DNA of 24,818 nt from an uncultured Candidatus Peribacteria bacterium. GTDB lineage: Bacteria > Patescibacteriota > Gracilibacteria > BD1-5 > JAGOOR01. The notes under the pieces were generated by a model. The model made no database searches. It was not told the DNA's origin and was given only the letters and a program-made list of their open reading frames with translations. Made by a program: the position numbers and the translations under genes. Where the stretch lies: contig CAZLKD010000001.1 of the NCBI GenBank assembly GCA_964560015.1, forward strand, positions 1 to 24,818, written 5' to 3'. Shown in pieces: positions 337-24,805 of this stretch (positions within the stretch are counted from its first letter, which is position 1; every line of letters begins with the position of its first letter).

Positions 337-363
337 AGGGTTCGAATCCCTTCTCCCCAACCA
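337..363 (+). pseudogene. tRNA 3' fragment (T-arm, acceptor strand, CCA); att-like remnant
   Basis: AGGG-TTCGAAT-CCCT-TCTCCCCA-A-CCA. No matching 5' half lies about 76 nt upstream. The acceptor implies a U1:A72 (Gln-like) tRNA, identity uncertain. Confidence 0.75.
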
Positions 364-384
364 AACGATACACTAATGATATAT

Positions 385-414
385 AGTGACTCTACTCCCT
401 AGAGTCACTTTTTT
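385..414 (+). terminator. Intrinsic terminator downstream of the tRNA fragment
   Basis: AGTGACTCTA-CTCCC-TAGAGTCACT 10-bp stem followed by a T tract. Confidence 0.8.
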
Positions 415-668
415 GTTTAAATTCAGCTATAAACCCTTTACGGGACTGATTAATGAGGGTAAGGGTGTGAGACCATTAGCCCTATGGAGAAGAGACACTA
501 ATTGAAGTTCTAAAGTATCTACATTATTCTTCTAAAAATAACCACTAAAAATTCATAAAATTAGTTAGAAATGGATCTAATATTTTTGGCATCTTTATAG
601 TTATATTTGATTGAAAAAGGGAATAAGATACATACAATTGAGATAAAGTTTTTAAAACGAAGTAAAAT

Positions 669-1199
669 ATGAATAATTTAGTTCCTCAAAATCTAAATAT
701 TGTTATTCTAGTAATGTCATTTATTACACTTTTAACCTGTTTGAGTCTACTCATATTATTTTTATACAGACGAAAACCAGTAGAGAATTCAGTTAAGTTC
801 GATGACCTGCTTTTAAAAATCTTGGCAGAAATTAAATCTTCTGTAACACCGAAGTTTATGAGTGTGTCAGTTGAGGCAAACGAGATTGCTGATCTTGCTG
901 TTGAAATATGGCGAATTGAACAACGTATTTCAAAGTCTTCTTCAAGTTTACCAGAGAATCAGCTCAAGGGTTTAGAAAATTCTACACTAAAATTGAGACG
1001 ATACCTTGAAAAGTACGATATTGAAATCGTAGACTACAAGGATCATAAGTATAACGAAGGTCTTAATCTCGACATTTTATCTGTGGAAAAAGACACTTCC
1101 TTGTTAGAACCAATTGTGAAAGAAACAGTTGAACCGACGATTATGCTTAAAGGCCAGCTCATTCGCAAGGCGAAGATAATTCTTCTAACCAATAGTTAA
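669..1199 (+). CDS. GrpE-like nucleotide exchange factor with N-terminal transmembrane helix (176 aa)
   Basis: Hydrophobic N-terminus, a helical segment, and a GrpE-type C-terminus (IVKETVEPTIMLKGQLIRKAKIIL). Ends 2 nt before the Hsp70 start. Confidence 0.7.
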   Translation: MNNLVPQNLNIVILVMSFITLLTCLSLLILFLYRRKPVENSVKFDDLLLKILAEIKSSVTPKFMSVSVEANEIADLAVEIWRIEQRISKSSSSLPENQLKGLENSTLKLRRYLEKYDIEIVDYKDHKYNEGLNLDILSVEKDTSLLEPIVKETVEPTIMLKGQLIRKAKIILLTNS

Positions 1200-1201
1200 T
1201 T

Positions 1202-3715
1202 ATGGCCAACCCACTAAACATACAAATAGGAATTGATCTTGGTACAACAAATTCATCTGTTGTCATAAATAACAATGGTAATATTGAAATTGTGAAAAAG
1301 CCCTGAGGCGTTGAGTATACAGCATCTATTTTTGGTTTTGATAAAGCAAAAAATAAAGTGGTTTGACAGAAAGCTTATGAAAATTATTACAAAGATGCAT
1401 CTGAAGATGAGATTAAAAACTACAAACCCGAAGTTAAGAGACTCATGGGTACTTCAGAAAAATTCCACTTTGAAAGAGGAGATATAGATATGGGGCCCGA
1501 AGAAATCTCAGCTGAAATTCTCAAAAGTTTAAAAGAGGATATTTTAAGAAAATATTCAGATTTTAATACTGTAGCAGCTGTAATAACAGTCCCAGCAGCT
1601 TTCTCAGTTCTTCAATCTGAGGCAACAAAGCGAGCTGGTAATCTTGCTGGATTTAAGCATGTAGTTTTATTGCAAGAACCTATCGCTGCAGCAATTGCAT
1701 CTGGCTTCACAAATACTAAGAATGAAAATTGGCTTATTTACGACTTTGGCGGTGGCACTTTTGATGTGGCATTGATCGCGTCAAAAGAAAGAGCACTTTC
1801 AGTACTTGGGCATAATGGTGATAATTTTCTTGGAGGGAAAAATTTTGATTTAGAGATCGTCGATAAAGTTATAGTACCAAAGATAATGGAAAAGTTTTCT
1901 GTTAAAAATTTTAACAGGTCAAATGAAAAATATAGAAGTGCTTTTTCACAATTAAAGTTTTTTGCAGAAACAGCTAAGATTGAACTTTCTGATTATGATA
2001 AGACTTCAATCGTCGTAGAAAATATTTGAATGGATGATGAAGGTAAAGAAATCTTCCTTACAATGAACTTCTCAAGAAAAGAATTTGAATCCTTGATTAA
2101 GCCAATGATCGATCGCACAATCGAACTTTCTAAAGCAACTTTGAAAGAGTCTGGCATTAAGAGCAGTTCTGTTGCAAAGGTGGTTTTAGTTGGTGGGCCA
2201 ACGCAGATACCTTATATTAGAGAAAGGATAGAGAACGATCTGAAAATAACTGTGGATTCGTCTGTTGATCCCCTTACTGTCGTTGCAAAAGGTGCTTGTA
2301 TATTTGGAATTAGCCAAAAGATTCCAAAAGAACTAATGGAGATCGATGAGAAAAAAGCTAATGAAGGAACTCTCTCTATAAACCTTAATTATGAATCTCT
2401 AACATCTGATACAGAAGAAACGATTAGTGGTGTTATAGAAAACCTTAAGGATTCAGAGGAAGAATTTTATATCCAAATCCAATCTGACAGCGGATTTTAT
2501 AATGGAACAAAAATTAAGCTAAAAAGTGGAAAATTCTTTGAAACAGTTGCTGTTGAGCCAAACAAACAAAATGTGTATTGGCTTTATCTTTTTGATAAAC
2601 AGGGTAATTCTGTTCCCATTGATCCTGATTCGTTCATTATTACCCATGGATTATCGGTATCTGGAGCTCCCCTACCTCATTCTGTGAGTATCATTGTTGC
2701 GCAAAAAGATTATACAAGAAACGTGGCCATGAATATTTGTGAGAGGGTTTTTGATAAAGGATCAATGTTGCCTGTAAAGAAAGTTCTTACAGAATATAAG
2801 ACCTCAAGAAAGCTAAAGAAAGGAGAAGAAAATGAATTAGGGATAGTTGTCGTTGAGGGTGAGTCTGAAATGCCCGATCGTAACGGATTTTTGTGTCAAA
2901 TTGGAATCAATGGTAAAGACTTACCACACGATTTACCAGAGGGAACTCCAGTAGAATTAACTGTCGTTGTAAATGAATCACGTGAAGTTTTTATCACTGC
3001 GTATATACCATTGATTGATTTAACTGTTAATGCCCGATCAACTTCTCATGATGAAACAATTGAACTTAAGAATATCGAGGAAGATTTAGAAACTCAAAAA
3101 GAAAGAGCCAAATTAGTTTCAGAAAGCTTATCACCTGATGAAAGAAAAGTCCTTGATAACAATATCCAGTCAGCACAAACAAGTGTTAGAAATGCATCAG
3201 TTGATGAGGATGAAAAGATGAAAGCAGATAAACAAATTAAAGATCTTAAAATAACACTTGATAATATTGAGAAAGAGAAAGAAATGCCCCAGTTGGTTAA
3301 GGAGTTTAAAGATGGGATCCAGGATACCCAATCAATTATCAATGACTATGCCGATGAGAAAGACAAAAGCACGAATAATGACCAATTGAGTAAACTTAAA
3401 ACTGAGGGAGAGAAAGCAATAGCAGATAATGATAAATCACTTCTGATTCGTATTAATGAACAAATTAAAGAACTCAGTTCTAAAGCGATATATTCAAACC
3501 CAGCTACATGGGTTCATCAGTTCAAAAAAATCATCGCTGGAAATCCAAATTTCATCAATGAAAAGGAAGCTAAATATTATATTCAGAAAGGAGAAAAGGC
3601 CATCGAGCTTGGAGATGTTGATGAAATAAAACGTTGTGTCCAAAACTTGTTAATGCTACTCCCTTCAGATCTACAAGAAACAATAAAAGATAATCTTTCT
3701 GGTATAACCCGCTAA
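1202..3715 (+). CDS. Atypical Hsp70/DnaK-family chaperone (837 aa, code 25)
   Basis: GIDLGTTNS, VITVPAAF, LQEPIAAA, DFGGGTFD, GDNFLGG, LVGGPTQIP, VAKGA. In-frame TGA at 1304, 1364 and 2027 read as Gly. Joins ORF-track fragments 1445-2029 and 2030-3715. Confidence 0.95.
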
Positions 3716-3718
3716 AAT

Positions 3719-5365
3719 ATGTCTCAAACACTTAAAAATAATGCTTATCATATTCTTGGTCTAGATACATCCGCTAGTGAGAAGGATATACTTAAACGTT
3801 CCAAGGAGATTATTAACCGTATCAAGGCTGACGAAAACCCTACCTATGAATTTGATATTGGATTATTCGAAGACTTTCGTACAGAAGATGCAGTAAAAAA
3901 TGCATTACAGGAGCTACAAGCCCCCAAAAAACGTATAAAAAATTACTTTTTCTGGTTTCAAATAGCAGACAGTATAGATGAAAAGGCTTTAAACTTCCTT
4001 AAGCTTAAGGATTTTTTAAACGCTATTCAAATTTGGCAAGATGCTTCTGAGGGACAGGGAACAAAAGCTTTCTTTTATAAAAAAAATCTGGCTATTCTAT
4101 ACTGTCTTATGCTTTCTGCAGAGGATAATAAAAAATATTTGAAAAATTCTCTGATTACCTGGAAAGAGCTTATTGATTCTGAAAAATTCTGGACTTCTTT
4201 TTCAAAAATTTATAAGCTACACGATGAACAAACAGCAAGTGAAGATATCATTCTTGATCTTAAAAATCATGCAATAAAATATCTGTCTGATATATATACA
4301 GAACTACATCATATTCATAAAAATAGTGGTTACGTTAATGAATTTCAACAAATATTTTCGATAAAAGGTGAAAAAATTGAGAAAAGTGTTTTATGACCAG
4401 CTTATCATGCTATCAATCAAGCTATTGAAGAACTTGAAAAAATGGAAGTAAGTAAAGACGGAAAATTTGATAAAGAAGAATCTGAATTAATAAAACGTCT
4501 TGTTGCCACCATACAAAAAGAGCTGAATAAATTGATTGATCTTGGGCTCTATGATGACAGTCAGACTAAAATAATGAGAGACCGTTCTGCTAATGCTTTA
4601 CGATCGATTGTTCTTGATCTGCATAACAACTTAGATGAACTGCATAAATCTCAGGGGTTATTGGAAGTAGCAATTAAATTAGCTGGTACGGAAAGTTTAA
4701 AAAATAAACTTGAAACTGAACTTCAACAGATTCACAAAAATATTAAAGATGAGGCTGACAATTCACTTGAAATAGAAATTCCTGGAACTTTTAAAAATAG
4801 TACTATTACTTTTAAAAATAATTTTGTTGAATATGAAAAAACAAAACTATATTTTAAGGATATTTCAGATATATCTTATGACTCAACGGCTACTACTAGA
4901 AAAATCTATGGTATAACAGTTTCAACAACATATACATATAGATATTCTATTAGTTCAGAGAAAGGGGATATAACAATCTCACTCTCTGCAAGTTATGATG
5001 AAAGTAAAGAAAAAGAAATTTGGGCAAAATTAATTGGATTATGATCTAGCCTGATAGAACCACTTATTGTAAAAAAAATTGTTGATCAAATATTTAATCG
5101 TGGAGAAACTGTACAAATTGGGCATATAGAGTTTACAAAAGAAGGATATTCAATAATAAAATATAAATTTTTTAGTAAAAATGAAAAACTCATGGTTTAT
5201 TGGTCAGACACAATATATATTCCAAAATTATATCAGGGGTCAGTAATTATTTGGAAAGATGAGAATGGTAAATGTGAGCAATTCACTAGTGTACCGATGT
5301 CGACTTCTAATTCAGTTCTACTGCCTGAGCTCGTCCAAGCTTGTTATAATAACCGAGAACAATAA
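3719..5365 (+). CDS. J-domain-like (no HPD) helical protein with beta-rich C-terminus (548 aa)
   Basis: N-terminus NAYHILGLDTSASEKDILKR resembles J helices I-II. Reads through TGA at 4394 and 5042 to TAA at 5363-5365. Confidence 0.75.
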
Positions 5366-5369
5366 AACT

Positions 5370-5963
5370 ATGAAAAATTCAAAAGACCATCTCAATATTG
5401 ATCTAGAATTCCTTGATAAAAAGGATCCACCTAAAGCTGTACATAAAAAAAACTCTAGTCCTGATAAACCAACTTCTAAACCCAATGGTTATAAATACAA
5501 ATGGGTAGTTATTCTGATTATTTGATACGCTATTTTTTTCTTTATAGGCCAAGAAAATTCTTCTAATAGTGGAACAAATTCATTGTCTACGACTACATCA
5601 CAGGACACTAGTGAGGACACTGTTAGAAATGGCCAATACCGATGTTCCAGTTATCATTCTAATCAGGCAGATTTGTTAAAAACAGACGAAAGTGAAGAAC
5701 ATATAACTCTTGCACAAAATTTACTAGAACAAAGAAGTAACGAACTGGATCGTCTAAAAAACGAAATTGATAATTCCTATGTAAACGATTCATCTCCACA
5801 GTACGAAATAGATAATTATAACGAAAAAATTGATACCTATAACGCAAAACTTGCTTCATATAAAAGAGACGCTAGCAATATGAGTGCTCGAATTGAAAAT
5901 TATAATGAGCAAATTAAGACGCATAATAACTACCTCATCACAAATTGTACTAAAGCTTATTAA
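5370..5963 (+). CDS. Single-pass membrane protein with coiled-coil C-terminal region (197 aa)
   Basis: ATG 5370, TGA 5523 within the TM segment WVVILIIGYAIFFFIG, a Ser/Thr-rich linker, Asn/Tyr heptad region and two Cys. Confidence 0.8.
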
Positions 5964-5969
5964 AATTCT

Positions 5970-7049
5970 ATGTCAGTACCTACAAAACCAATTTTACATA
6001 ACTGATTCCAAATAAGGGATGACCTTTCTGTAAAAAATCGTATCGAACGTATATTTTTCACAGAAATATACGAACTTTCTAACGGAAAATATCTATATCT
6101 TTTTACTAATATATGACCAGAGGAAGTAATTGATCGAGGGAAAAAATATGACTTAGTTACTATTAATCATGAGGGGAAAAAATACCTTAGTGTTATTATA
6201 AACACTCATTCACATGAAAAAATAACTGATATTATTGATGACCTGACTACTTTGAGTGGTTTTGATTGTGTTGCTGGTATGCAAGAATTAAAAGCTCTAT
6301 TGATTAGTGAAGTTATGGAACCTCTAATGAATCCAGAAAAGTTTCTAAAATTTAAACTCTCAATACCAAATGGTATATTGCTTTATGGGCCACCATGATG
6401 TGGTAAAACATTTATTGTAAAAAAATTAGCTGAAGAATTGAAATATAATTTCTTTGAACTCAGTCCTTCGTCCGTTGCTACTCCTTGGGTTCATGGTGCC
6501 GTGGGTAATATTGCAAAAGTTTTTGAAATGGCCAAAATGCAATCCCCAGCTATTATTTTTATTGATGAAATTGAGGGCCTTATACCAAAAAGAGAGGAAC
6601 TCTGATCCCAGGCTGATATTAAGAAAGAAGAAATAAATGAATTCTTGTTACAACTTAACAATGCAGGGGCAAATAAAATTTTGGTAGTTGGGGCAACAAA
6701 TAGGCCCCATATGATTGATACAGCAATTCTAAGATCAGGTAGAATGGATAAACGGATCTTTGTATGACCACCAGATTTTGAAGCTAGAAAAGATATGTTT
6801 AGAATTTTTCTTTCTGGACGGCCATATGATAAAAATATTGATTTCGATAAGCTCGCGACTATGACGGAGTTCTATGTCGGTTCAGATATTGAACTTATTG
6901 TCACTCAATCTGCTCGTATAGCTGTTGCAAAAGAAAAGAGTTTTATTGATGAAAAGATGATAATGGATGCATTGAGTAAATTTAAACCCTCAATTTCAAA
7001 AGAAGAAATTACATACTACGATCAATTTACAAATCTAGAACGATCTTAA
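5970..7049 (+). CDS. Classical-clade AAA+ ATPase (CDC48/FtsH-like single module, 359 aa)
   Basis: Walker A GPP(TGA)CGKT with TGA at 6396, Walker B IIFIDE, SRH ATNRPHMIDTAILRSGRMD. No protease domain. Confidence 0.93.
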
Positions 7050-7061
7050 CAACTTTATCTA

Positions 7062-7370
7062 ATGATTACTACTGAACAATCACAATATAGGATTTTATTT
7101 TCAAAGATTGCAACTATTGGATTATTACTTGCCATTGTTCCCATCTGGCCATACTTTTTTTATCAATTTCTCAAGCTGGTAGTATTCGGAACTGCAACTT
7201 TCTCAGTTTATTTATATCACAAGGAGAAAAATACTAAATGGATGCTAATAATGATAGTGATTGCTATCATTTTTAATCCAATTAATGCTTTATATTTTTG
7301 ACATTTTCTTTGGTCAATCGTGGACGGAATTGTAGCATTATTATTTTTCAAATCACCAAAAAGGAAATAA
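7062..7370 (+). CDS. Small multi-pass membrane protein, DUF6804-like (102 aa)
   Basis: WPYFFYQFLKLVV...IIFNPINALYF(TGA)HFLWSIVD pattern; stop TAA 7368-7370. Family assignment is from recall only. Confidence 0.7.
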
Positions 7371-7384
7371 ATTACATCGGAGCA

Positions 7385-8641
7385 TTATTGAATGCATGGA
7401 AGCCCCTCTTTCAGTACCATTTTCTCTCCAAATTGCCTCAGAACCTCCCCTTTGTCGCCGTCACTACCTCCTGTAAATATAAAATTCAAATATTCGGTCT
7501 TGGTTGTGATCTTGGCATTTTCTCCATGAATCATGTTTTGCATAGCGTTGATCTTGTCGACCTCTTTGGTGAGTTTTTTGTCGAGTAGTGGCTTGTAGCT
7601 CGTCATCGACTCACAGAGCTTCACAAGCCCCTCAATAAGGGCTTCTTCTCGGATATGTTTCTCATTACATGTTCCTTTACCTCCGTGGCGATTGCAACGA
7701 TAGTATATATACCTCTTTCCGTGTCTATTAAACTTCTCTTCTCCCGTGATTCCCGATCAACAACATCCACATTTGAAGATTTTACTGAAATAGAAGTGTT
7801 TACGACCCCAAACTCCTTTCGGTGGCACCTTTAACTTCTCTCTGGCTTGTTCGTATATCTCTTTCGTGATTAAAGGTGTGTGGTGACCCGTATAATGGTT
7901 ACCACTTCATTTTGGATACTCATAGTCTCAATAATAAAAGGTGCAGTCGAGCATCCGAAATATCATACTGAGAGTGAGCCGTTTCCCCCTCTTTGTTCGA
8001 AGTCACCTGTCATGAGCAAATTCCCATACCTGTCGACCACTGAATCCATCTTTTACAATCCACTCAAACATTTGTTGAACAATAGGAGCTCTAATGGGAT
8101 CGACAGCAACATGGCTCTTTTCAGAAACAATTCTACCTCGAACAACTTCATATCCTATAGGCACACCTCCTGGTCGCATACCAAGCTCACATTTTCGTCT
8201 CAATCCTCGTTTCACGTTCTTGGTTCGATTATCATTCTCCAGTTTTGCCTGGCTACAGAGAATCATCAGGAGAAATTTCTCATTGGGATTATTGGAAAAA
8301 GTTGATCCATGAGTGCGAATCTGTACAAGTACACCTTCATCCATCATATCTACAATAGACCCAAGATCTCCAGCATTCCTCGAAAGTCGATCAGGAGCCC
8401 AAGTAAGGATAGCATTGTAGCGTTGTTCTCTCAGACCGTTGAGAAGCTCCATATAGACCCTGCGTTGTCCTGAGGCTTTGGCTGATTTACTCTCGGTCAA
8501 TGTCTCAACAATTTCCAGTCATTCTTGTTCAGCGATCTTGTGCATCTCATTAATCTGAGAATCAATGGAAAGGGCCTGTTTTTCATCGGCTTCCGATGAT
8601 TTTCGTGCATACAGACAGTATTTGAGAGGTGTATCTTCCAT
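7385..8641 (-). CDS. Large serine recombinase (resolvase, recombinase and Zn-ribbon domains; 418 aa)
   Basis: KYCLYARKS catalytic motif, WAPDRLSRN, PIGY, KCGCCG...YYRC Zn ribbon. GAGAG upstream of the ATG at 8641. Confidence 0.93.
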
Positions 8642-8698
8642 ACTCTCATTAATGTATATTTCGACCCTCAAGTCTAGGCAAAAGTGCTAGAAAAGGCA

Positions 8699-10192
8699 CT
8701 AAATGATCCAAATTCCTACAGTATGATCCTTTTTTCCGAAAGCATGGTTGACCATAATGGTAAAAGCATCCACAAGGTCGTCATGTCGCTCTTTTCAGAA
8801 GCCCACAAGTTGTTCTACAAGCATGATTCATGCTTCTGTTTTAGGGAATTTGATTCTTCCAGTTTTGATCAAGTCAGTGACAAGGGCGAGACGTTCTCTT
8901 TTTGACCCATGAGGTTTAATGCCAACTATATCCATCCTCTGACCTTTTCGCAGATATTGCTCCATAGCAGCTTGATACCCGACCGTTTCTATGATAACCT
9001 CATGCTTGTTGTGTTTATGTATCCGTGATAGTCTTTGGTGATATTCCGCCAGTGTTTCGGCTGTTTCTGAAAAATCCATTTTTCGAGCGAAAGCGTCGAC
9101 AATGAAAAGGATTTTATGTTGCTTCCGTCACCATTCCCATCCTGTCACGAAAGCAGTGTAATCTGCAGCGGCACTTTCGGAAATAGCCAAGTCGACACCT
9201 GTATTGAGATCAAGAGGATGTGGTAAGCTATTACTATAACATCATCTGCGTTCATTAACCATAGCTGGAGCTGGCTCAGGAAAATTATCATACCAGCGTA
9301 TCCATTCTGGAAAAATTACTTGTCACTCTGCTCACGCATCTTCGAGCATATATTCAGTCCTCCAGGCGACCTCACTTCAGACAGTTCATTTGAGTTCGAT
9401 AATGTTTTCTTCTGAATATCTCTCTGGCCAGAGGCATTTTCCGTGTTCGTCCATCAACGGATATTTTCGGAAAACTCAATTTTTTTGACCGCTCTCGATT
9501 CGATCCTTCATCCTCATCAGGAGTGAATCACGGTGGAGCATATTCCCAACAAGGAATATACGTGTTTTTTTGAGATCACCGAGAGGGATGATTTCTTTGG
9601 TGAACCACTCAAATAATTTATCCCTTCCCTCTCTTGTTTTGATAGATTGTAGATCCTCGATGTCATCCGCAATAATCAATTGAGGTCTATTATTCCTATG
9701 TCTGATTCATCGGGCGGATTGATCCACTGAAACAACTGTAATGCGGGCTTGGGATTTAAGGAGAACGATAGATGAAGCGTTGAATTCGTCTCACTCTTCT
9801 CGAAAAGGTCAGAGGTCTTTGGAGAGAAGTTCATTGTTGATTATTTCCTCTTTCAAATTACGCATATACATCTTTGCCTGTGCTTGGGTCTGAGCAACGA
9901 TGACAATGAATTTGTAATTATTCTTACCCAGAATACCCCAGAGTGGAAAAGCAGTATTGATAATGGTCGATTTACCAGATCAACGAAATGCCATGATGGT
10001 AGTAAAGAGATTTGTCGGGTCTTCGATAAGATGAAACATCTCTTTATGAAACCACGCCATCGGTGAAGTAATGTAGTGGGCGAAATATATCTCGAAGAAG
10101 AGCTGGAAACTCTCACGAGCGAGTCCTCGTCGGATAGGAGCAGATTTTTCTATGGCTTTCATGTCTTTCGGATTTATAGGATTTTTTTTCAT
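8699..10192 (-). CDS. terL: Phage terminase large subunit (497 aa)
   Basis: Walker A FR(TGA)SGKST, Walker B LIIADD, nuclease motifs GVDLA, ADYTA and HDDLVDAF. Stop TAG 8701-8699. Confidence 0.9.
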
Positions 10193-10203
10193 AGTGTGAG
10201 GGA

Positions 10204-10599
10204 TTAAGATTTAGGATTGTAATTTTTGAGAACTCTGCGAATGACTTCTCTCTGTGCTTTGGTAAGGGCTTCTTTTTCTGGGGTATCAATAATCTCGATC
10301 TTGTTTCCATAGACCGAGTGTCTCGATTTAAGCCAGAAGATAATGGCTGTCATATTGCCGTCCTTCATGCCTTTCAGAAGCTGAGACTCAGCAACATCGT
10401 TCATAAGAAAAACTCATCTCTGAAGGGCTTTTTTCGCTTTCTTGGCAAAGACAGGATCACTTTGTAACCACCGATAATATGTGGATCTTCCAATGCCGCC
10501 TTTCTCACAAGCGATCTGAACAATGGGGGTCTTCTCAAGATGCTCTAAGAGTAGAGTTTTGTCCGTTTTGATACGGGAAATGATATTTTGTGTAGTCAT
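10204..10599 (-). CDS. Terminase small subunit-like HTH protein (131 aa)
   Basis: HTH ACEKGGIGRSTYYRW, then AIIFWLKSR. Lies directly upstream of terL. Two ORF-track fragments joined by TGA at 10414-10416. Confidence 0.7.
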
Positions 10600-10603
10600 A
10601 TTT

Positions 10604-11398
10604 TTAGGTTATTTTTTCAGCTAATTTACCTGTGTATTCTTGCCATCTGTGAATGATAGCACGACAGTAGACAGGATTGATTTCAACCGTCACACACTTT
10701 CTACCAGTCTGTTCTGAAGCCATGAGCGTACTTCCTGAACCCCCGAAAGGATCATAAACGGTGTCATCTCGTTTACTGGAATTGAGTATCAATTCTCTGA
10801 GAAGCGGAATTGGCTTCATAGTAGGATGGATCGTATTCTTTCTCACTCTCGCAAACGGAAGAATGCTCTTCGCTTTTCAACCATAGAAGGCATGTTTTCC
10901 ATACCATCCATAAGCAATGAGCTCGTGTTGAGGCAGATAATCAAGACGGCCAATGATTGCCGAGTCTTTTATCCATACCAAGAGCTGTGTAAACTTCATT
11001 CACGCCTGAAGCATTCACTCTCGAAGAGCAAATATCATTTTGTCGGCATTAAAGATGTACGATGCATTTTTTTCTGCAAAGTATGGGAGCATAGGAGTAA
11101 TCCAGTCTCGTGTGAACTGGGCATATTCTCTGTCAGTCTGTATTCCGTCTTGAGGGATATCTTCGAACTTCTCCGTTGTACCGGTGAATCATTTCTTTGA
11201 TTCGACATAATCGATTCAATATGGTGGATCTGTCAGGAGAAGATTGATTCTCTGTCCATCTCTCAAGAGTCGCTTCCATATATCTGGATGACGAGAATCT
11301 CCACAGAAGAGAAGATGGTCTCAGAGGAGAAATATATCTCCTTGAGCAATATTAAGCTCCTTTGATTTTGGTAGCTTTGGTGTTGGTGAGTGTTTCAT
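10604..11398 (-). CDS. Beta-class N6A/N4C DNA methyltransferase (264 aa)
   Basis: LLFCGDS, TDPPY, HPTMKP and DPFGGSGST in beta order; open frame in code 25. Confidence 0.9.
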
Positions 11399-12665
11399 AG
11401 CGTTTGATTATTAGGTCAAGAAATAAAGGTTCGTGTTCCATAAGGAGAGCCGTGCGTTTCATTTGCTCGCAGGCAATCAACGTGCTACCCGATCAACCAA
11501 AGAGATCGAGAACAATATCTCCAACTTTCGTACAGCGTTTAAGGGGCTTCTCGTGGAGCGTGGGTGGTTTTTCCGTAGGATGTTCGTAAGTACCTACTAC
11601 GAGTCTTTTTGCGAGCCACAGGTCAAATAAATCGATAATGTCTTCAAGAACTCGATTTCCTACTCATACTTCTTTATCAAGAACTTCCGTCAGATTTCTT
11701 AAGTCTGATGAAAGGTATGGTTTTCATCGTGTCCCATAGACACACGGTTCATAGCTCCTATTGAATGCGATCTGCGGTGTGGCATTCATATTGTTCTTAA
11801 CCCAGAGACATACTCTTCTCGGTTCGAGTCCAAGTGAGGAATATATATTTTGCAGGAGTCAGATGGAATTCGGATCGCACCAGCAAAAGATATGTGTGTC
11901 CTCGTGGGAATGTGCTAGACCATTCGAAAGTGTTGTAACAAGGAACTCTCTGTATGCTTCTCAAGTCTTTGCATCATTTGTTTTCTTACCTCCATACTGT
12001 TTGCTGTTATTCAGTCACTTGGAATAATCTAAACCTATGTTGTATGGCGGATCATAATAGAGCATCGACACTTTTCACGATCCTTCTGGTAGAGAATGTA
12101 TCAACTCAGATACCTGGTCGGCATTTGTAGAATCTCAGCACATAATTCTATGATTTCAGAGAGCATAGATATCTCAGAGTTTACTTTGTGGTTCTCCGAG
12201 AGCTTCAAGTTCTTTCTCTGTTTGAAAATTATCCTCTTCAACTCACAACATGGCATCCCACATGGAAGAGAGTTCTGCGTTATCAAATCCTACATCGAGG
12301 AGGAGTCATACATCGAAGTCTTTAAGAATATCGAAATCCCAATCTCACGTATTCTGATTGAGTCTCAAATTAAGCTCTTTCTCCCTTTCTAGCGGAAGTG
12401 CAAGATAGAGTACTGGTACCTCTTTCATTCCGAGGGCTTTGGACGCTTCTAGTCGAAAATGTCATCCAATGACTACCTGCTTTCGCTCTGGGGTGTTGTT
12501 CACAATAATTGGATCTACTAATCAGTAGCTCCTAATACTTTCCATTAACGCCTGCATCTGGCGTTCCGAGTGCTTCCGAGGATTGTAGGAGGCGGGATTC
12601 AGAGTGTCTATGGGAACATAGACTATTTTCTGACGCAGGTCTGAGACCTTGATTTTCTGAGACAT
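11352..12665 (-). CDS. ParB-like N-terminal domain fused to beta-class DNA methyltransferase (437 aa)
   Basis: YNPRKH...G(TGA)HFRLEA ParB motif, YDPPY, HPTEKP, DLFG(TGA)SGST. 15 in-frame TGA codons. Confidence 0.92.
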
Positions 12666-18682: not shown

Positions 18683-18800
18683 TGGGACTCGAATAGAGAG
18701 CGATCTCTGCTCGAAGATATGCCCACAGGCATATCTGTCCCGAGCCGTCTCCGGCAGCGAGTGAAACGAGCGAGAGGAAAGAATCCCTCATTCCCAACCA
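18683..18800 (+). other. 118-nt multi-hairpin GC-rich element ending in a tRNA-type 3' end with CCA
   Basis: Hairpins GAGC/GCTC, AGATATGCC/GGCATATCT and GCCG/CGGC; ends GAATCCCTCATTCCCAACCA. Confidence 0.55.
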
Positions 18801-18822
18801 TTACGTACATTAATGTTACATT

Positions 18823-18850
18823 GTGACCCTATTACCTAGGGTCATTTTTT
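18823..18850 (+). terminator. Intrinsic terminator homologous to 385-414
   Basis: TGACCCTA-TTACC-TAGGGTCA followed by 6 T. Confidence 0.8.
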
Positions 18851-18919
18851 AGTGGGCATCTTCCCAGGGTTTCCATTTCCTCCATTTTTTATATACTAAT
18901 AATACTTTAACCTTTTGTA

Positions 18920-21265
18920 ATGCTCGATTTTTGAATACTAGGCATGAATGCGAGGAACCTCCTCTACATAAAAAAATTTAATAATAAAAAATCGATTTCA
19001 CTTGCTGACAGTAAAATAAAGACCAAGACATATCTCTCAGCTCGTTGAGTCCCCTTTGCAGAAACATTTGCCGTCATACAATCAAAGGCAGACCTACAAA
19101 ATTGGAAATTCTCGAGCATCACTTCTGACCACTTTGTTATAAAACCGAATGAGGGAAGTAAAGGTAACGGCATACTCGTACTCGAGAGAAAAGGAAATAT
19201 TTTTTTTGATCAAGAGAGATCATACAATGAGTCAGAGCTGAGAGCTCATATGACGGATATATTAGATGGTGCTTTTTCTATTTCTGGAGGCTACGATACA
19301 GTCTTAATAGAAGAGAAACTCTTACCTGACGAGTCATTTCGACATTTTTGTCAGTATGGATTAGCAGATATCCGTGTCATCGTATTTAATCTCGTTCCTG
19401 TGGCAGCGATGGTGAGAATGCCTACAATGATTTCAGGATGAAGAGCTAATCTCGCTCAAGGTGGAGCTGGTTTTGGGATAGATGTCACAACAGGTGAAAT
19501 ACATTCATTTTTCCAACATAAGACACTCCATCATAACATATTCCCAGAGAAATATAGATTTCTCCGAGGGAAAAAAATAGGATATTGGAATGATATCCTG
19601 CTCTTCTCTTCTCAGATTCAGATATTTGCAAATCTAGGCTATCTCGCTCTCGACTGGGTCATCACCCCCACATGACCGAAATTACTCGAGCTCAACGCCC
19701 GAGCTGGTCTCGAAGTGCAAAACGTCAATGGCATCGCTCTCCGATCTCGGCTACGAAAAGTAGAAAATTTACGCATTACTGACCCTGTAAAATGAGTCGA
19801 AATTGCTCATTCTCTTTTTCAAGAAGCCCCGATTTTTCATATTCAGGAAAATAAAATCCTCTATACAAAACAAAAATGATCTATTCGTCAGTGAGAGCAT
19901 AAATATGAAAACATAGATATACAGGTTGATCTCCAAACCCCCTCAGCAAGAGGTAATGGAGATTTCATGGATCCAAGCAATGGAGATACTTATAAGATAG
20001 CATCGTACGATGGTGCAGAAATAACACTTCCCTCAATAGTATTCGATGGAACACTCTCACCTCAAACACTTATACTCGGTACTGCAGACATCAGAGATTA
20101 CTATTTGAAACCCTCCACATCACCACACTACGATGTAGTGTATCGATATACTACATCTCATTGGCCTCAGATCATACTCGATATCGATGAAAATCTCTAC
20201 AAATTAAGCAAAAGGGTCAACCTCTCTTATTTCCTCAAGCCAACTAATTATTATCAAGAACTCGACACTTTTATCTCTGCACAAGGCCTCTATAATCCTA
20301 TCTTTCAGTATGATTTTCCAGAAAAAATATTTTTTGAAAAATGTAGTGCTGATATAAAAGAACTCCGCGCATCCTTGATAAAAATGGGCGCCGAATATAC
20401 CACTCTGGCTCAGATATTCTGAGAAAAACTAACGGAAATAGAGTTCAAGTGTGAGCTCCTCAGATGATACTCTCGAGAGAATCCAGCCATCATACATGAT
20501 GCAAATAATGCCCTCTTTGGCGAACTCGATGATACAATCATGGCACTTGCTCAGGAGAAAGTCCTGACACTGAGCGACGTCCAAAAAAACCAAAAGAAAG
20601 TCAGAGGGAAACTCCTCTCTCCGGATGAAATTTTTGAGGGAGTGACACAATATTGCCGAGAACACAATTTCTCTGATATACCTGTTGCATTTCGAGATAA
20701 AAACTTTGCACGCATATCCATCTCATATGGAAAACGTATACGGATCAACCTGTCAAAAAATGCACGCATATACGCAAGAGAGCTCCCCGCTATTCTCGCC
20801 CACGAGATATGAGTGCATCTCCAGAGGCATCTCTCGTGACAATCTGCTGGACTAAAAATATTTCAGTATTGAACTGGATTTTATATTCAAGACGAGGAAT
20901 GACTCGCTATCTATGAATCGCTCAAACACCTTCCAGAAGGATATGAAAAAAATGCTATGTATATCAAATACTACCTCGCTTTTACTGCAAAAACGATGAA
21001 TTTTTCTGATTTGGCACGTCTCATGCAGAGCCTCTATCCAGAAAAATCACAAGAACAAATTTTCTCAGATGCATGTCGTGTAAAACGAGGCATCAAACAC
21101 ACACAAAGAACTTGAATCCTGTGATATATGAAGGATACAATTTACCTCCCTGGATACCTGCGATTAAAAAAATGGATAGAGTCAGGAGAGGACCCCTATA
21201 TGCTCTTCCAGGCAAAAATAAAAATAGCTGATATACCTCTCGTCAAGCCATTTTTTAATTCTTAA
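18920..21265 (+). CDS. Fusion of alpha-L-glutamate-ligase-like (ATPgrasp_ST) ATP-grasp, degenerate retropepsin-like domain and DUF1704/MATCAP-like metallopeptidase (781 aa)
   Basis: GILGMNARNL, VIKPNEGSKGNGI, ADIRVI, ANLAQGG, LELNARAGL; then HEI(TGA)VH at 20801-20818, EE(TGA)LA at 20894-20908, RVKRG and KDTIYLPG. One continuous frame to TAA 21263-21265. Confidence 0.88.
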
Positions 21266-21275
21266 ATCATTCTAC

Positions 21276-22792
21276 ATGAAAAAAATAGCTCTCCTACTAT
21301 CCCTTTTCTCAATTATATGATCTTCTTGGGCTCAAGAAATACCAAAAAATAATGTAGATACAATTACTAGCTGTTCGTCCTCAAAGGCGATAAGCAAGTA
21401 CGACAAGAAACCTCTCGTGAGTATTTCGTAACTCCGTGAGATACGAGTATTGATATACCAAAAAAGGTAATCTACACTCTCAAAAAAAATAATAAAAAAG
21501 TTGAAATAGTTTCTCGAGAAAAATATACAATTTATTTTGATGTACCAGGTGACATGATACTAACAGCGGAGGTACAGTATGGTGATAATTGTCAGACAAC
21601 CCTCTCCAAGGATATAAAGGTATTCCCTTACGCAATCGCCTACATCGGTGACAAAAATTCAGTAAAAACACCGGCAACAGATGCCGATACTCCTGGCTTT
21701 GTCGCAGATACGTTGAAAAAACGAAACATACTTTTCTATGAGCTCACTCCTCCCCCATCACAAGCATCTATTTCGTTTCAGGAATTCGATGATTTTATAA
21801 CGAAAAACATCAAGACTATTGAAGATAGCGATGTCATTATCATTAACTCTGTCAATTTTTTATCTCTTTTTGATTCTCTCGCAAAAATCGTCAACATATC
21901 CGATATAAAATCTCTTTCATCAAAGCACATATTTGTCATTTCAGATACCAACGAGTCTTTTCTCGCAAAAATTCTTGGACAATCTATAGGACATCTCGGT
22001 ATTTCAGGGGTTTCGCTCGTTCAACCCTCGGCCCTGTTTGAATTGTTACTGCAGATTACTCCCGATAATCTGACTTTTGGGAAAATGGTATCCTACTCAA
22101 CAGAGACATTTTCTTATTCACTTTCTCGATTTCTTGAATTTCTCCTCTACTTTGGTTTTTGATATAGCTTTCTGTGATTGCTTCTCAAGGTCAGCATAGT
22201 CGTACTCGTGCTCAACTTCCTCAAACAAGTCATCTGAGTGCATATATTTAGCATCTATAACCCCCTCTTTTTGGCTCTTTGTTTTGCAATTTTTGGTATC
22301 GGACTCACTTCGATATTCCTCTTTATTGCTTTTCTTTCGACCCGTATTATCAATCTCATCACAACACATCTACCTCTTCTCTATAATACACGGAGGTCCC
22401 TCCTCATAACACTTTATGTCCTCTTATCATTGATTTTTCTCGGTCTAGATATCATATTCCATATCGAGCTGGTCGATTACGATATATTTGCAAATATATT
22501 TAGCATATTTCCATTTCTATTTCTCATCATGGTAGCTGATAAAATATTTCATGAGGATATCAATATATGGAGTCGACCAGGTTTCATATCATTTGTTCAA
22601 TTCATCATCATATCGCTGGTAACATACAGCATTTTATCTTCTGCAAATTTGCAAGAATTTTTGATTTCTTACCCCGATTCCCTCTTCGCGATTCTTATAC
22701 TGAATTTCCTCATTGGCAGATACACTGGACTCCAACTTTTCGAGTATATACGTTTCACGCCTCTCCTAAAAAAACTCCAAGAAGAAGAATAG
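21276..22792 (+). CDS. Signal peptide, extracellular domain and 7TM (7TM_transglut-like) membrane protein; apparent 1-nt frameshift at ~21370-21428
   Basis: MKKIALLL...WAQE signal-like start in one frame (stop 21429-21431). The main frame opens after TAG 21368-21370 and runs to TAG 22790-22792 with the C-terminal NFLIGRYTGLQLFEYIRF motif. Confidence 0.75.
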
Positions 22793-23799: not shown

Positions 23800-24741
23800 A
23801 AGATAGGTAATATAGGCGCTATACATCATCACGAATACGAGTCACTGCCATCTCTCGAGCTGGTTTTTTTGACCAATTAGGAGAGCGAGAAATAAGAGTG
23901 TTGATGCGCCAATACATACTCATATGTCTACAAAAGAGGCTGATTGTATTCGTACAGGACTAATAATAGCCGATGCTCCGAGGACCCAGAAAATATTAAA
24001 TATATTTGATCCGACGATATTACCAACAGCGATATCATTTTGTCCCTTACGTGCTGCAACAATAGAAGTGACGAGCTCGGGAAGAGATGTACCTATCGCA
24101 ACAACAGTAAGCCCTATAATTCTCTCAGACATTCATAAAAGCTCTGCCATATGAACTGCTCCATCAACAAACATATTTCCTCAGACAAAAAGTCCTATCA
24201 AACCACCTGCAATCAAATGAAATGTCATCCAATTTGTGTAGAGTTTTACGCCTTTGTCTTCATTCTCTTCGTCATGACTAATCTGAAAGACGTAATAGAG
24301 AAATATCACGAAAAAGAGAAGAAGCACCAGACCATCAGAGCGACTAATGAGATTATTATCACCCTGACCAAAATAAATATCGGCACCGAGGAGACCAACG
24401 GCAACGATAGCAAGGAGAGAAAATGGTATCTCCTTCCATACTGTTGAATCCCTCACGGGTATGGTAGAAAGAACACTGGTAAGCCCCAGAATCAGAAGAA
24501 TATTTGATATATTTGATCCGACGATATTGCCTAGAGCAATATCGCTATTATTTTTGAAGCTCGCGAAGGTGCTGACTATGAGCTCTGGGAGAGATGTCCC
24601 AAAAGCAACGATGGTAAGACCGATAACTAGACTTGAGATGCCGAATCTTTTTGCAATAGAGACAGAACCAATAACGAGGATATCAGCACCTTTTATCAGT
24701 ATCGCGAGACCCGCTATGAGAAAGAAAATAGATAAAAGCAT
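23788..24741 (-). CDS. yrbG: Ca2+/Na+ antiporter (CaCA family, 317 aa)
   Basis: Two alpha repeats GTSLPEL...GNIVGSNI; continuous through TGA to TAA 23790-23788. Confidence 0.93.
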
Positions 24742-24744
24742 GTG

Positions 24745-24805
24745 AGAATTATATTCACGAGAGCTATAATTCCCAGCAGAGATCTGAAAAAAGATCAGTT
24801 AAGCT
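24745..24805 (-). promoter_or_regulatory. Conserved upstream element of antiporter paralog B
   Basis: Same blocks and pairings as 129-188. Confidence 0.6.

Follow-up and report, generated by a model that had tools for sequence, protein, structure and literature searches.

A putative mobile Hsp70-AAA cassette encoding tagged membrane proteins in a Candidatus Peribacteria genome

The stretch of DNA analysed here, referred to as the window, is one entire contig of 24.8 kb (CAZLKD010000001.1, 24,818 nt) of an uncultured Candidatus Peribacteria bacterium, the assembled genome of which comprises 0.97 Mb and is 82% complete. Near its beginning, the window carries a compact cassette of six co-oriented genes, g1 to g6 (positions 669-7370, + strand, separated by gaps of 2, 3, 4, 6 and 12 nt; Table 1), in which an atypical Hsp70 (g2) is encoded together with a GrpE-like protein (g1), a J-like protein without HPD motif (g3), a single-pass membrane protein bearing an N-terminal tag (g4), an AAA ATPase (g5) and a small membrane protein (g6). 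Both this layout and all six domain calls had been proposed in an initial annotation of the DNA, and they hold. One conserved unit, which occurs in bacteria and archaea, is formed by the dedicated Hsp70, the GrpE homologue, the presumed degenerate J-domain protein and an AAA ATPase of the single-ring type whose catalytic and pore motifs are intact.

The cassette belongs to a genome that decodes TGA as glycine (code 25). All long genes are fragmented when translated with table 11 and whole under table 25, and re-calling the genes with table 25, as recommended in the initial annotation, recovers six intact frames that table 11 breaks. Moreover, the TGA codons of the Hsp70 gene encode residues G35, G55 and G276, which in an alignment fall in conserved glycine columns of table-11 homologues. 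Because table 25 mends the frames and the TGA sites of the Hsp70 align with conserved glycines, code 25 is the correct one. The start of g4 was reassigned to the ATG at 5370, right after the g3 stop codon.

Assignment of g2 to the Hsp70 family is based on both sequence and predicted structure. Residues 9-369 match the Hsp70 profile PF00012 (E = 1.4e-70) and the nucleotide-binding domains (NBDs) of DnaK structures in the Protein Data Bank (PDB) match the protein at E = 1e-52, with Hsp70 profiles reaching just the NBD. The AlphaFold2 (AF2) model (pLDDT 88.5, pTM 0.81) contains an NBD (residues 1-370), an extra β domain (~394-482), the β subdomain of the substrate-binding domain (SBD; ~495-610) and a helical region (622-818), and the flexible tail ends in an invariant C-terminal SGITR. 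In Foldseek searches the NBD and SBD superpose on full-length DnaK and BiP with TM-scores of 0.71-0.83 depending on the target (0.83 for 5o4p). The protein has the traits of an Hsp70, namely an actin-like NBD with the signature motifs and, in the AF2 model, a β-sandwich SBD with a helical lid. It nevertheless lies below the equivalog cut-offs of canonical DnaK (253.7 vs. 648 bits and 246.8 vs. 822 bits; NCBIfam NF001413/TIGR02350) and of HscA (205-213 bits vs. 620-708), and it is unlike HscC, which has 550-580 residues and is GrpE-independent, in its length and in its adjacent GrpE homologue. No DVLLLD-like interdomain linker was found in the g2 sequence after the NBD. The segment of DnaK that reads ERIINEPTAAA aligns with HVVLLQEPIAAA in g2, and the equivalent of R167 is V155, which is invariant in the family. 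R167 of E. coli DnaK is the arginine that we take to contact the J-domain by pairing with the aspartate of HPD. The initial annotation had treated the cassette Hsp70 as distinct from the housekeeping chaperone and this is indeed the case: the start of a typical DnaK lies at the broken end of contig C110 of the same genome, which elsewhere also encodes a canonical GrpE (contig C13) and two canonical J-domain/DnaJ proteins (C30 and C56).

The g3 protein consists of a probable degenerate J-domain (residues 4-72), a helical domain that extends to residue 347 and two β-sandwich-plus-helix units (350-547). Pfam produces no match for g3, the J-domain profile PF00226 matches none of 36 family members, and a search of the genome with PF00226 skips the protein. 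However, when a profile of its first 85 residues was compared with the J-domain profile of the genome's relatives by hhalign, a probability of 83% was obtained (E = 8.7e-6), whereas two control segments in the same comparison reached 0.4-0.5%. In the AF2 model (pLDDT 90.5), which is all-helical to residue 347 before the two β-sandwich-plus-helix units begin, helices 9-12, 21-36, 56-67 and 69-77 fit the J topology with a longer loop. Foldseek comparison of this model with the PDB yielded helical proteins of TPR and 14-3-3-like type, but these matches were weak and did not go below E = 1e-3. The AlphaFold Database (AFDB) contains a 36%-identical homologue named 'J domain-containing protein', and many other proteins in it share just the C-terminal unit. 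By eye the C-terminal units look PH-like in the model. This C-terminal module is exchangeable: depending on the locus it consists of soluble β units (as in the window), of a helical module ending in a transmembrane (TM) helix or of a short TM module. In addition, an alignment of archaeal J-like proteins reveals a zinc-ribbon insert of ~50 residues (CxxC...CxxC) in L039, L041, L063 and L065 that L040 does not have.

The HPD position of g3 is occupied by K36-A37-D38, and the family consensus at this site is K-[IA]-D-D. Since HPD has become K-A-D in g3 and the partner arginine an invariant valine in the Hsp70, the classical J/Hsp70 switch is altered on both sides. Prediction of a complex between residues 1-640 of an Hsp70 and residues 1-347 of a J-like protein encoded on one contig (P0052 and P0174) returned a score of 0.26, the mark being 0.32, which speaks neither for nor against the pairing.

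The g1 protein has a TM helix at about residues 10-32 and a C-terminal part that is weakly GrpE-like. Its match to the GrpE profile PF01025 (E = 2.6e-3, 17.9 bits) is under the 25.8-bit gathering score in the window copy. However, 14 of 20 orthologues match the profile at E <= 0.01 (best E = 2.8e-9), and the g1 family is therefore probably a divergent GrpE, although a profile of the family recovered no GrpE among PDB sequences. In the cassette loci compared, the gene is always located directly upstream of that of the Hsp70. Archaeal copies lack the TM helix. This bears on the proposal of the initial annotation that the machine is tethered to the membrane, which does not hold as written: in the bacterial forms the GrpE-like and many J-like proteins carry TM helices, and the archaeal versions are without any tether. 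In eight loci (including L017, L029, L037 and L048) a small gene encoding an XRE-type helix-turn-helix protein is found 5-43 nt upstream of the GrpE-like gene. It is likely the operon regulator and is missing from the window.

The AAA ATPase encoded by g5 belongs to the classical clade (PF00004, E = 1.2e-34) and has a conserved β-rich N-domain (residues 1-95). Its Walker A motif (GPPGCGKT), Walker B residues (D199/E200), arginine fingers (R255/R258) and an aromatic pore loop with the pattern [WYF]-[VI]-H-G are conserved in 22 homologues. The best NCBIfam matches, FtsH, CDC48 and PAN, all stay far under the cut-offs, and with one AAA module in its 359 residues the protein does not show the two modules and M-domain of ClpB. 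Identification of g5 as the defence ATPase IetA was considered and rejected, as the IetA match (E = 3.5e-32) is generic for AAA proteins, the curated IteA cut-off is missed (104 vs. 510 bits) and IetS is lacking; no protease gene that could be the IetS partner was found in the window cassette. The small protein encoded by g6 belongs to the DUF6804 family (PF20619, E = 1.6e-19, 70.3 bits vs. a gathering score of 27).

The g4 protein starts with a tag at about residues 7-17 (HLNIDLEFLDK), which is followed by a polar linker, a TM helix (~45-60) and an outer coiled coil, with two conserved cysteines. Alignment of 25 membrane proteins encoded between g3 and g5 in 19 sources (the window and 18 loci) showed that the motif [KH]-L-x-[IFL]-[DN]-[LFT]-[DEN]-F-L-[DEK] begins after 3-9 residues in all of them, with invariant phenylalanine and leucine (F14 and L15 in g4), and that it precedes a polar linker of 25-50 residues and then a TM helix. 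Past the tag, the proteins belong to four unrelated families: the g4 type, proteins with a Cys-rich ectodomain, RDD proteins (E = 1e-15) and Yip1-domain proteins (E = 3e-9). Several cassettes encode two tagged proteins that differ from each other. The motif is found once in the genome studied, g4 being the only tagged open reading frame, and archaeal cassettes do not encode a tagged membrane protein. The initial annotation had presented g4 as a fixed component, which is not borne out, since other tagged membrane proteins can take its place. Weak matches of g4 to the PD-Lambda-1, PbeC and DruC models of PADLOC (best E = 4.3e-4, 17 bits) fall in its TM/coiled-coil region and are taken as compositional.

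A six-gene order found nowhere else would have refuted the initial annotation; the gene order is in fact widely conserved. About 60 loci, at 40-98% identity, retain the core of the cassette in the order GrpE-like, Hsp70, J-like, (tagged membrane protein), AAA. The Hsp70 gene is present in 63 loci, g3 in 60, g1 in 57 and g5 in 52, and most of the missing genes are accounted for by contig ends. The conserved unit is not of six genes as first thought, but of four to five, as DUF6804 is found in 25 of ~63 loci, upstream or downstream of the core, and is thus an optional accessory. The family is large: there are more than 120 clusters of full-length Hsp70 homologues (64-98% identity, nearly all 834-839 aa) and about 500 clusters of g3 homologues, and a search with just the C-terminal 468 residues of the Hsp70 yields ~1000 clusters at 50% identity, with proteins typically of 815-845 aa. 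Among species-representative genomes, bacterial hosts include many lineages of the candidate phyla radiation, Omnitrophota, Bdellovibrionales, Pseudomonadota, Bacteroidota and Melainabacteria, and archaeal hosts include Woesearchaeota, Nanoarchaeota, Micrarchaeota, Methanoregulaceae and Nitrosopumilaceae. Some bin labels of these genomes may be wrong; complete chromosomes, which are represented among the archaea, are sound. The distribution is very patchy: when 400 genomes of the phylum were sampled, 3 had the cassette (three families; 84, 71 and 42% identity), and no copy of the Hsp70 was found among 40 close relatives, of which 18 are other members of the genus and 22 belong to the order.

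More distant Hsp70s that are built in the same way, with C-terminal parts 25-30% identical, occur with other partners, such as Ser/Thr kinases or a TIR/PIN island. In two loci (L010, 4657-11694; L012, 250-4417) such ~830-aa Hsp70s lie beside a Ser/Thr protein kinase gene, and L010 also encodes proteins of 548 and 184 residues in a different order. This suggests a putative sister system under kinase control.

How the cassette reached this genome can be read from its composition and surroundings. The cassette has a GC content of 32.5%, compared with a genome mean of 41.4% (standard deviation 1.8), which is the lowest among 154 genome windows of 6.7 kb and agrees with the AT-richness noted in the initial annotation. 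Moreover, TGA makes up 12 of 103 glycine codons in the cassette and 79 of 342 in the remaining genes of the window. The cassette is foreign here and was acquired horizontally, GC content and TGA usage being evidence of recent arrival.

The same initial annotation had placed next to the cassette a recombinase/terminase module, which is indeed there: genes for a large serine recombinase, TerL, TerS and two methyltransferases (MTases) follow directly. This backbone is 81% identical at the nucleotide level to contig C7 of the same-genus genome G401 (L114, 6117-11417), and the encoded proteins are 71-96% identical. On the other side of the cassette, positions 338-362 of the window correspond to the 3' end of a tRNA-Gln gene; ARAGORN and Rfam detect no RNA gene in the window, and at the same place in G401 the tRNA-Gln(CTG) is intact, a stretch of G401 that overlaps it (L114, 4865-5029) being 80% identical to positions 338-502. 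In G401 the slot bounded by the tRNA end and the 3' end of the recombinase gene spans 1.1 kb and holds one unrelated gene for a membrane protein of 254 aa, and the same slot of the window spans 6.9 kb with the cassette inside. Because the slot in G401 holds a different gene, the cassette is cargo of an integrative element in which the contents of this slot vary. The element has packaging genes, and its recombinase/TerL/TerS/MTase module, in which portal, capsid and tail genes are absent, resembles an element of the satellite type with a slot for variable cargo. The same cassette-recombinase junction is present in a metagenomic contig with a 94% identical Hsp70, and within 3 kb of the cassette large serine recombinase genes are found in 11 loci, ParB-MTase genes in eight, TerL genes in seven and TerS genes in five.

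The initial annotation had also described a tRNA-derived att-like site. The tRNA-Gln 3' end is there as stated, and a second, diverged copy (~78% identical) of the 72-nt repeat that contains it is found at 18781-18853. However, this ~72-nt repeat (tRNA-Gln 3' end plus terminator-like hairpin) is dispersed throughout the genus, each genome having several copies that are 83-93% identical, and is also present on contigs C65 and C86 of G000. The repeat pair at 344/18785 was therefore rejected as proven att sites, as it is no proof of the ends of the element and does not fix the far end. The dispersed copies may have been left behind by related integrative elements, or they may represent a small mobile repeat.

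Table 1. Location and assignment of the genes of the cassette and of the adjoining parts of the integrative element in the window.
Feature	Position	Strand	Gap to preceding gene	Description
g1	669-1199	+		GrpE-like protein, 176 aa, N-terminal TM helix
g2	1202-3715	+	2 nt after g1	Atypical Hsp70, 837 aa
g3	3719-5365	+	3 nt after g2	J-like protein without HPD, 548 aa
g4	5370-5963	+	4 nt after g3	Tagged single-pass membrane protein, 197 aa
g5	5970-7049	+	6 nt after g4	Classical-clade AAA ATPase, 359 aa
g6	7062-7370	+	12 nt after g5	DUF6804 small three-TM protein, 102 aa
tRNA-Gln 3' end remnant and terminator-like hairpin	338-417	+		tRNA-proximal end of the integrative element
Element backbone	7385-12665	-		Large serine recombinase, TerL, TerS, MTase, ParB-MTase (Pfam and PHROGs)

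Two further observations concern the window outside the cassette. Positions 1-175 and 24617-24791, at the contig ends, are 82% identical direct repeats that cover the starts and upstream regions of paralogous genes, which may explain the assembly break there. Positions 18920-22792 encode a 781-aa fusion of an ATP-grasp domain (ATPgrasp_ST) with a MATCAP-like peptidase followed by a 7TM_transglut protein, a pair that is syntenic in at least four genomes of the same genus with ~77% protein identity.

Taken together, the parts of the cassette and their conservation point to a putative Hsp70 cycle with its own exchange factor, a rewired J adaptor and a substrate-threading AAA ATPase. In the model that we favour, and in which our confidence is a little short of even, the block would be an Hsp70 machine complete in itself that was acquired horizontally, travels as cargo in the variable slot of a tRNA-Gln-linked element and acts on membrane proteins via the tag. 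Because a constant cytoplasmic tag is attached to otherwise unrelated membrane proteins, it is probably a recognition peptide for a constant part of the system, in which case the tagged proteins would be either clients, which are held, pulled or extracted, or anchors or sensors. In the favoured model, the Hsp70 set would be anchored to the membrane by the TM helix of the GrpE-like protein and, in other variants, also by that of the J-like protein, and would recognise the tag in order to hold or pull the tagged proteins. The J-like protein would serve as adaptor through a rewired contact, in which K-A-D replaces HPD and valine the partner arginine on the Hsp70, and the AAA ATPase would unfold or extract the tagged membrane proteins.

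As to what such a machine is for, a role in conflict is plausible, yet we hold it with less than even confidence. The cassette may be a defence/abortive-infection module, or one that benefits its carrier, with the tagged membrane proteins as regulated effectors or sensors. This role would fit a cassette that is mobile and rare, that brings its own clients, that sits in a cargo slot and that elsewhere has defence-type neighbours. A Fic protein detected with the SoFic model of PADLOC (E = 1.5e-41) is encoded next to the cassette in L018, L022 and L074, where it lies directly upstream, and in L078, where it lies downstream; these four loci come from different lineages. Other conflict-type neighbours are PDC-S19 (E = 4.7e-132), Schlafen/AlbA_2 proteins, HerA/mad8-like ATPases, nucleases, toxin-antitoxin genes and the TIR/PIN island. 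Several observations weigh against this role and against the favoured model. No component matches a validated defence protein in PADLOC or NCBIfam, the core has no constant gene for a nuclease, a protease or a pore-forming effector, and in some loci the surroundings consist of housekeeping genes, dnaG and rpoD among them. Moreover, the association with defence islands is anecdotal and comes without a control. Archaeal cassettes have neither tag proteins nor a membrane anchor, and the membrane-client model is therefore not the whole story.

A stronger version, which we consider rather unlikely, is that the family represents a fourth prokaryotic Hsp70 class working as an immune or conflict device, in which the chaperone and the AAA ATPase would restrain tagged effectors or sensors. 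Infection would then lead to the release or extraction of the tagged membrane proteins, stopping the invader or killing the cell. The rewired J/Hsp70 switch would insulate the machine from the DnaK system of the host, and the module would be portable enough to function in bacteria and archaea alike.

Location among housekeeping genes would fit with accessory quality control of the envelope, i.e., a system that helps to insert, maintain or remove membrane proteins under stress and that spreads because it is useful to small-genome organisms and not because it fights phages. Such a function, suggested together with the conflict role in the initial annotation, is also in keeping with the membrane tethering of GrpE-like and J-like variants and with presumed clients that are membrane proteins; a Cu-ATPase operon is encoded in the same window block, and for the closest analogue, HscC with DjlB/DjlC, a chaperone function on membrane proteins has been proposed (PMC8215388). 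Against it stand the patchiness of the cassette in the phylum and among its close relatives, its frequent company of recombinases, terminases and defence-type genes, and the fact that it brings its own clients instead of serving host proteins, the tag occurring once in the genome. We regard quality control as improbable.

Less probable still is that the tagged proteins are anchors or sensors and not clients. The tag would then recruit soluble Hsp70 and AAA ATPase to the membrane, the outer domains would report envelope events, and the machine would act on other substrates. The swappable outer domains (coiled coil, Cys-rich, Yip1, RDD) combined with a constant cytoplasmic tag resemble a design of sensor plus constant signalling part, and several cassettes have two tagged proteins of different kinds. 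Nevertheless, a further anchor seems redundant where the GrpE-like and many J-like proteins have TM anchors of their own, and no downstream substrate or effector is identifiable. Finally, a function in the life cycle of the carrier, whereby the chaperones would help a capsid-less, terminase-bearing satellite to exploit a helper phage or to settle in a new host, is very improbable: the cassette does lie beside genes for serine recombinase, TerL, TerS and MTases in the window and 5-11 other loci, one IMG/VR contig has it and viruses encode their own Hsp70s, but most loci are without terminase, archaeal chromosomes carry the cassette without such genes, the same-genus element has different cargo in the same slot and no structural genes were seen in the 21 kb around the viral-contig copy. 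That copy came from an alignment scan, in which one IMG/VR contig proved to carry the cassette with no structural genes within 21 kb around it, and a single-sequence scan of viral contigs had found no cassette; a phage origin is hence unsupported.

The cassette matters in several respects. The family would add a fourth prokaryotic type of Hsp70, with ~1000 clusters of 830-aa proteins, its own GrpE and a fixed AAA partner. A J partner without the supposedly essential HPD, paired with an Hsp70 without the matching arginine, is a natural test of HPD-free switching. The clients or anchors would be marked by a portable peptide tag, and the Hsp70/AAA pair is simple and genetically linked, which is convenient for in vitro study. 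The cassette is also a candidate chaperone-based conflict system that crosses the boundary between bacteria and archaea, and the comparison of cargo slots in one genus offers a clean example of how it travels. To all this the window contributes a code-25 host, the arrival evidence from GC and TGA usage, the cargo-slot comparison, a census of the four tag-bearing families and the profile-level test of the J-domain.

The view that the cassette is a candidate for an undescribed system, put forward in the initial annotation, agrees with the searches of PADLOC, NCBIfam and the literature. PADLOC-DB v2 gave no match for g1, g2, g3 and g6 and generic AAA matches for g5, and a full-text literature search found no published description of the cassette. 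Reviews distinguish DnaK, HscA and HscC as prokaryotic Hsp70 types (PMC8215388), and the cassette is not among the many uncharacterised 'DnaK derivates' mentioned in a 2026 review (PMC13580251). The closest likeness is to HscC and its partners DjlB/DjlC of E. coli: here, too, an Hsp70 exists besides the housekeeping one and has J partners that are dedicated to it and have evolved with it, the distribution is sporadic and suggests horizontal transfer, and a role with membrane proteins is suspected. However, HscC is a protein of 550-580 aa that works without GrpE and with normal J partners (Mayer, 2021; PMC8215388), whereas the cassette Hsp70 has 837 aa, an extra β domain, a 200-residue helical extension and its own GrpE homologue, its J-like partner lacks HPD, and the operon also contains genes for an AAA ATPase and for tagged membrane proteins. 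With the DnaK-DnaJ-GrpE system and ClpB, the cassette shares the combination of an Hsp70, a J-type partner, an exchange factor and an AAA unfoldase that are predicted to cooperate. The differences are that ClpB has two AAA modules and an M-domain where g5 has one classical AAA module and a small β-rich N-domain, that the cassette Hsp70 is without DVLLLD-type linker and has valine in place of R167, and that the parts are operon-linked, mobile and membrane-tethered. The PAM import motor of mitochondria (mtHsp70, Tim44, Pam18/Pam16 and Mge1) is likewise a membrane-held Hsp70 with a GrpE-type factor and the HPD-less Pam16, and it pulls polypeptides as they emerge. Homology to PAM is limited to the shared families; the cassette has no translocon, adds an AAA ATPase, and the proteins presumed to be its clients are tagged at a cytoplasmic N-terminus. 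IetAS (Gao, 2020) and other AAA systems of PADLOC resemble the cassette in that g5 matches IetA models and the cassette is often near defence genes, but this match reflects the AAA fold in general and the cassette has no IetS protease. Hsp70 and GrpE have also been co-opted, sometimes with DnaJ-fused partners, by predicted conflict systems with GAP1-N2 GTPases (Kaur et al., 2020; PMC7159879). These are centred on the GTPase (with tubulin or FNIII), are found in actinobacteria and firmicutes and are without AAA and tag proteins, whereas the cassette has neither GTPase nor tubulin. In all, the cassette is classed among the specialised Hsp70 systems, as one in which the AAA partner is fixed, the J switch is degenerate and membrane proteins are marked by a tag.

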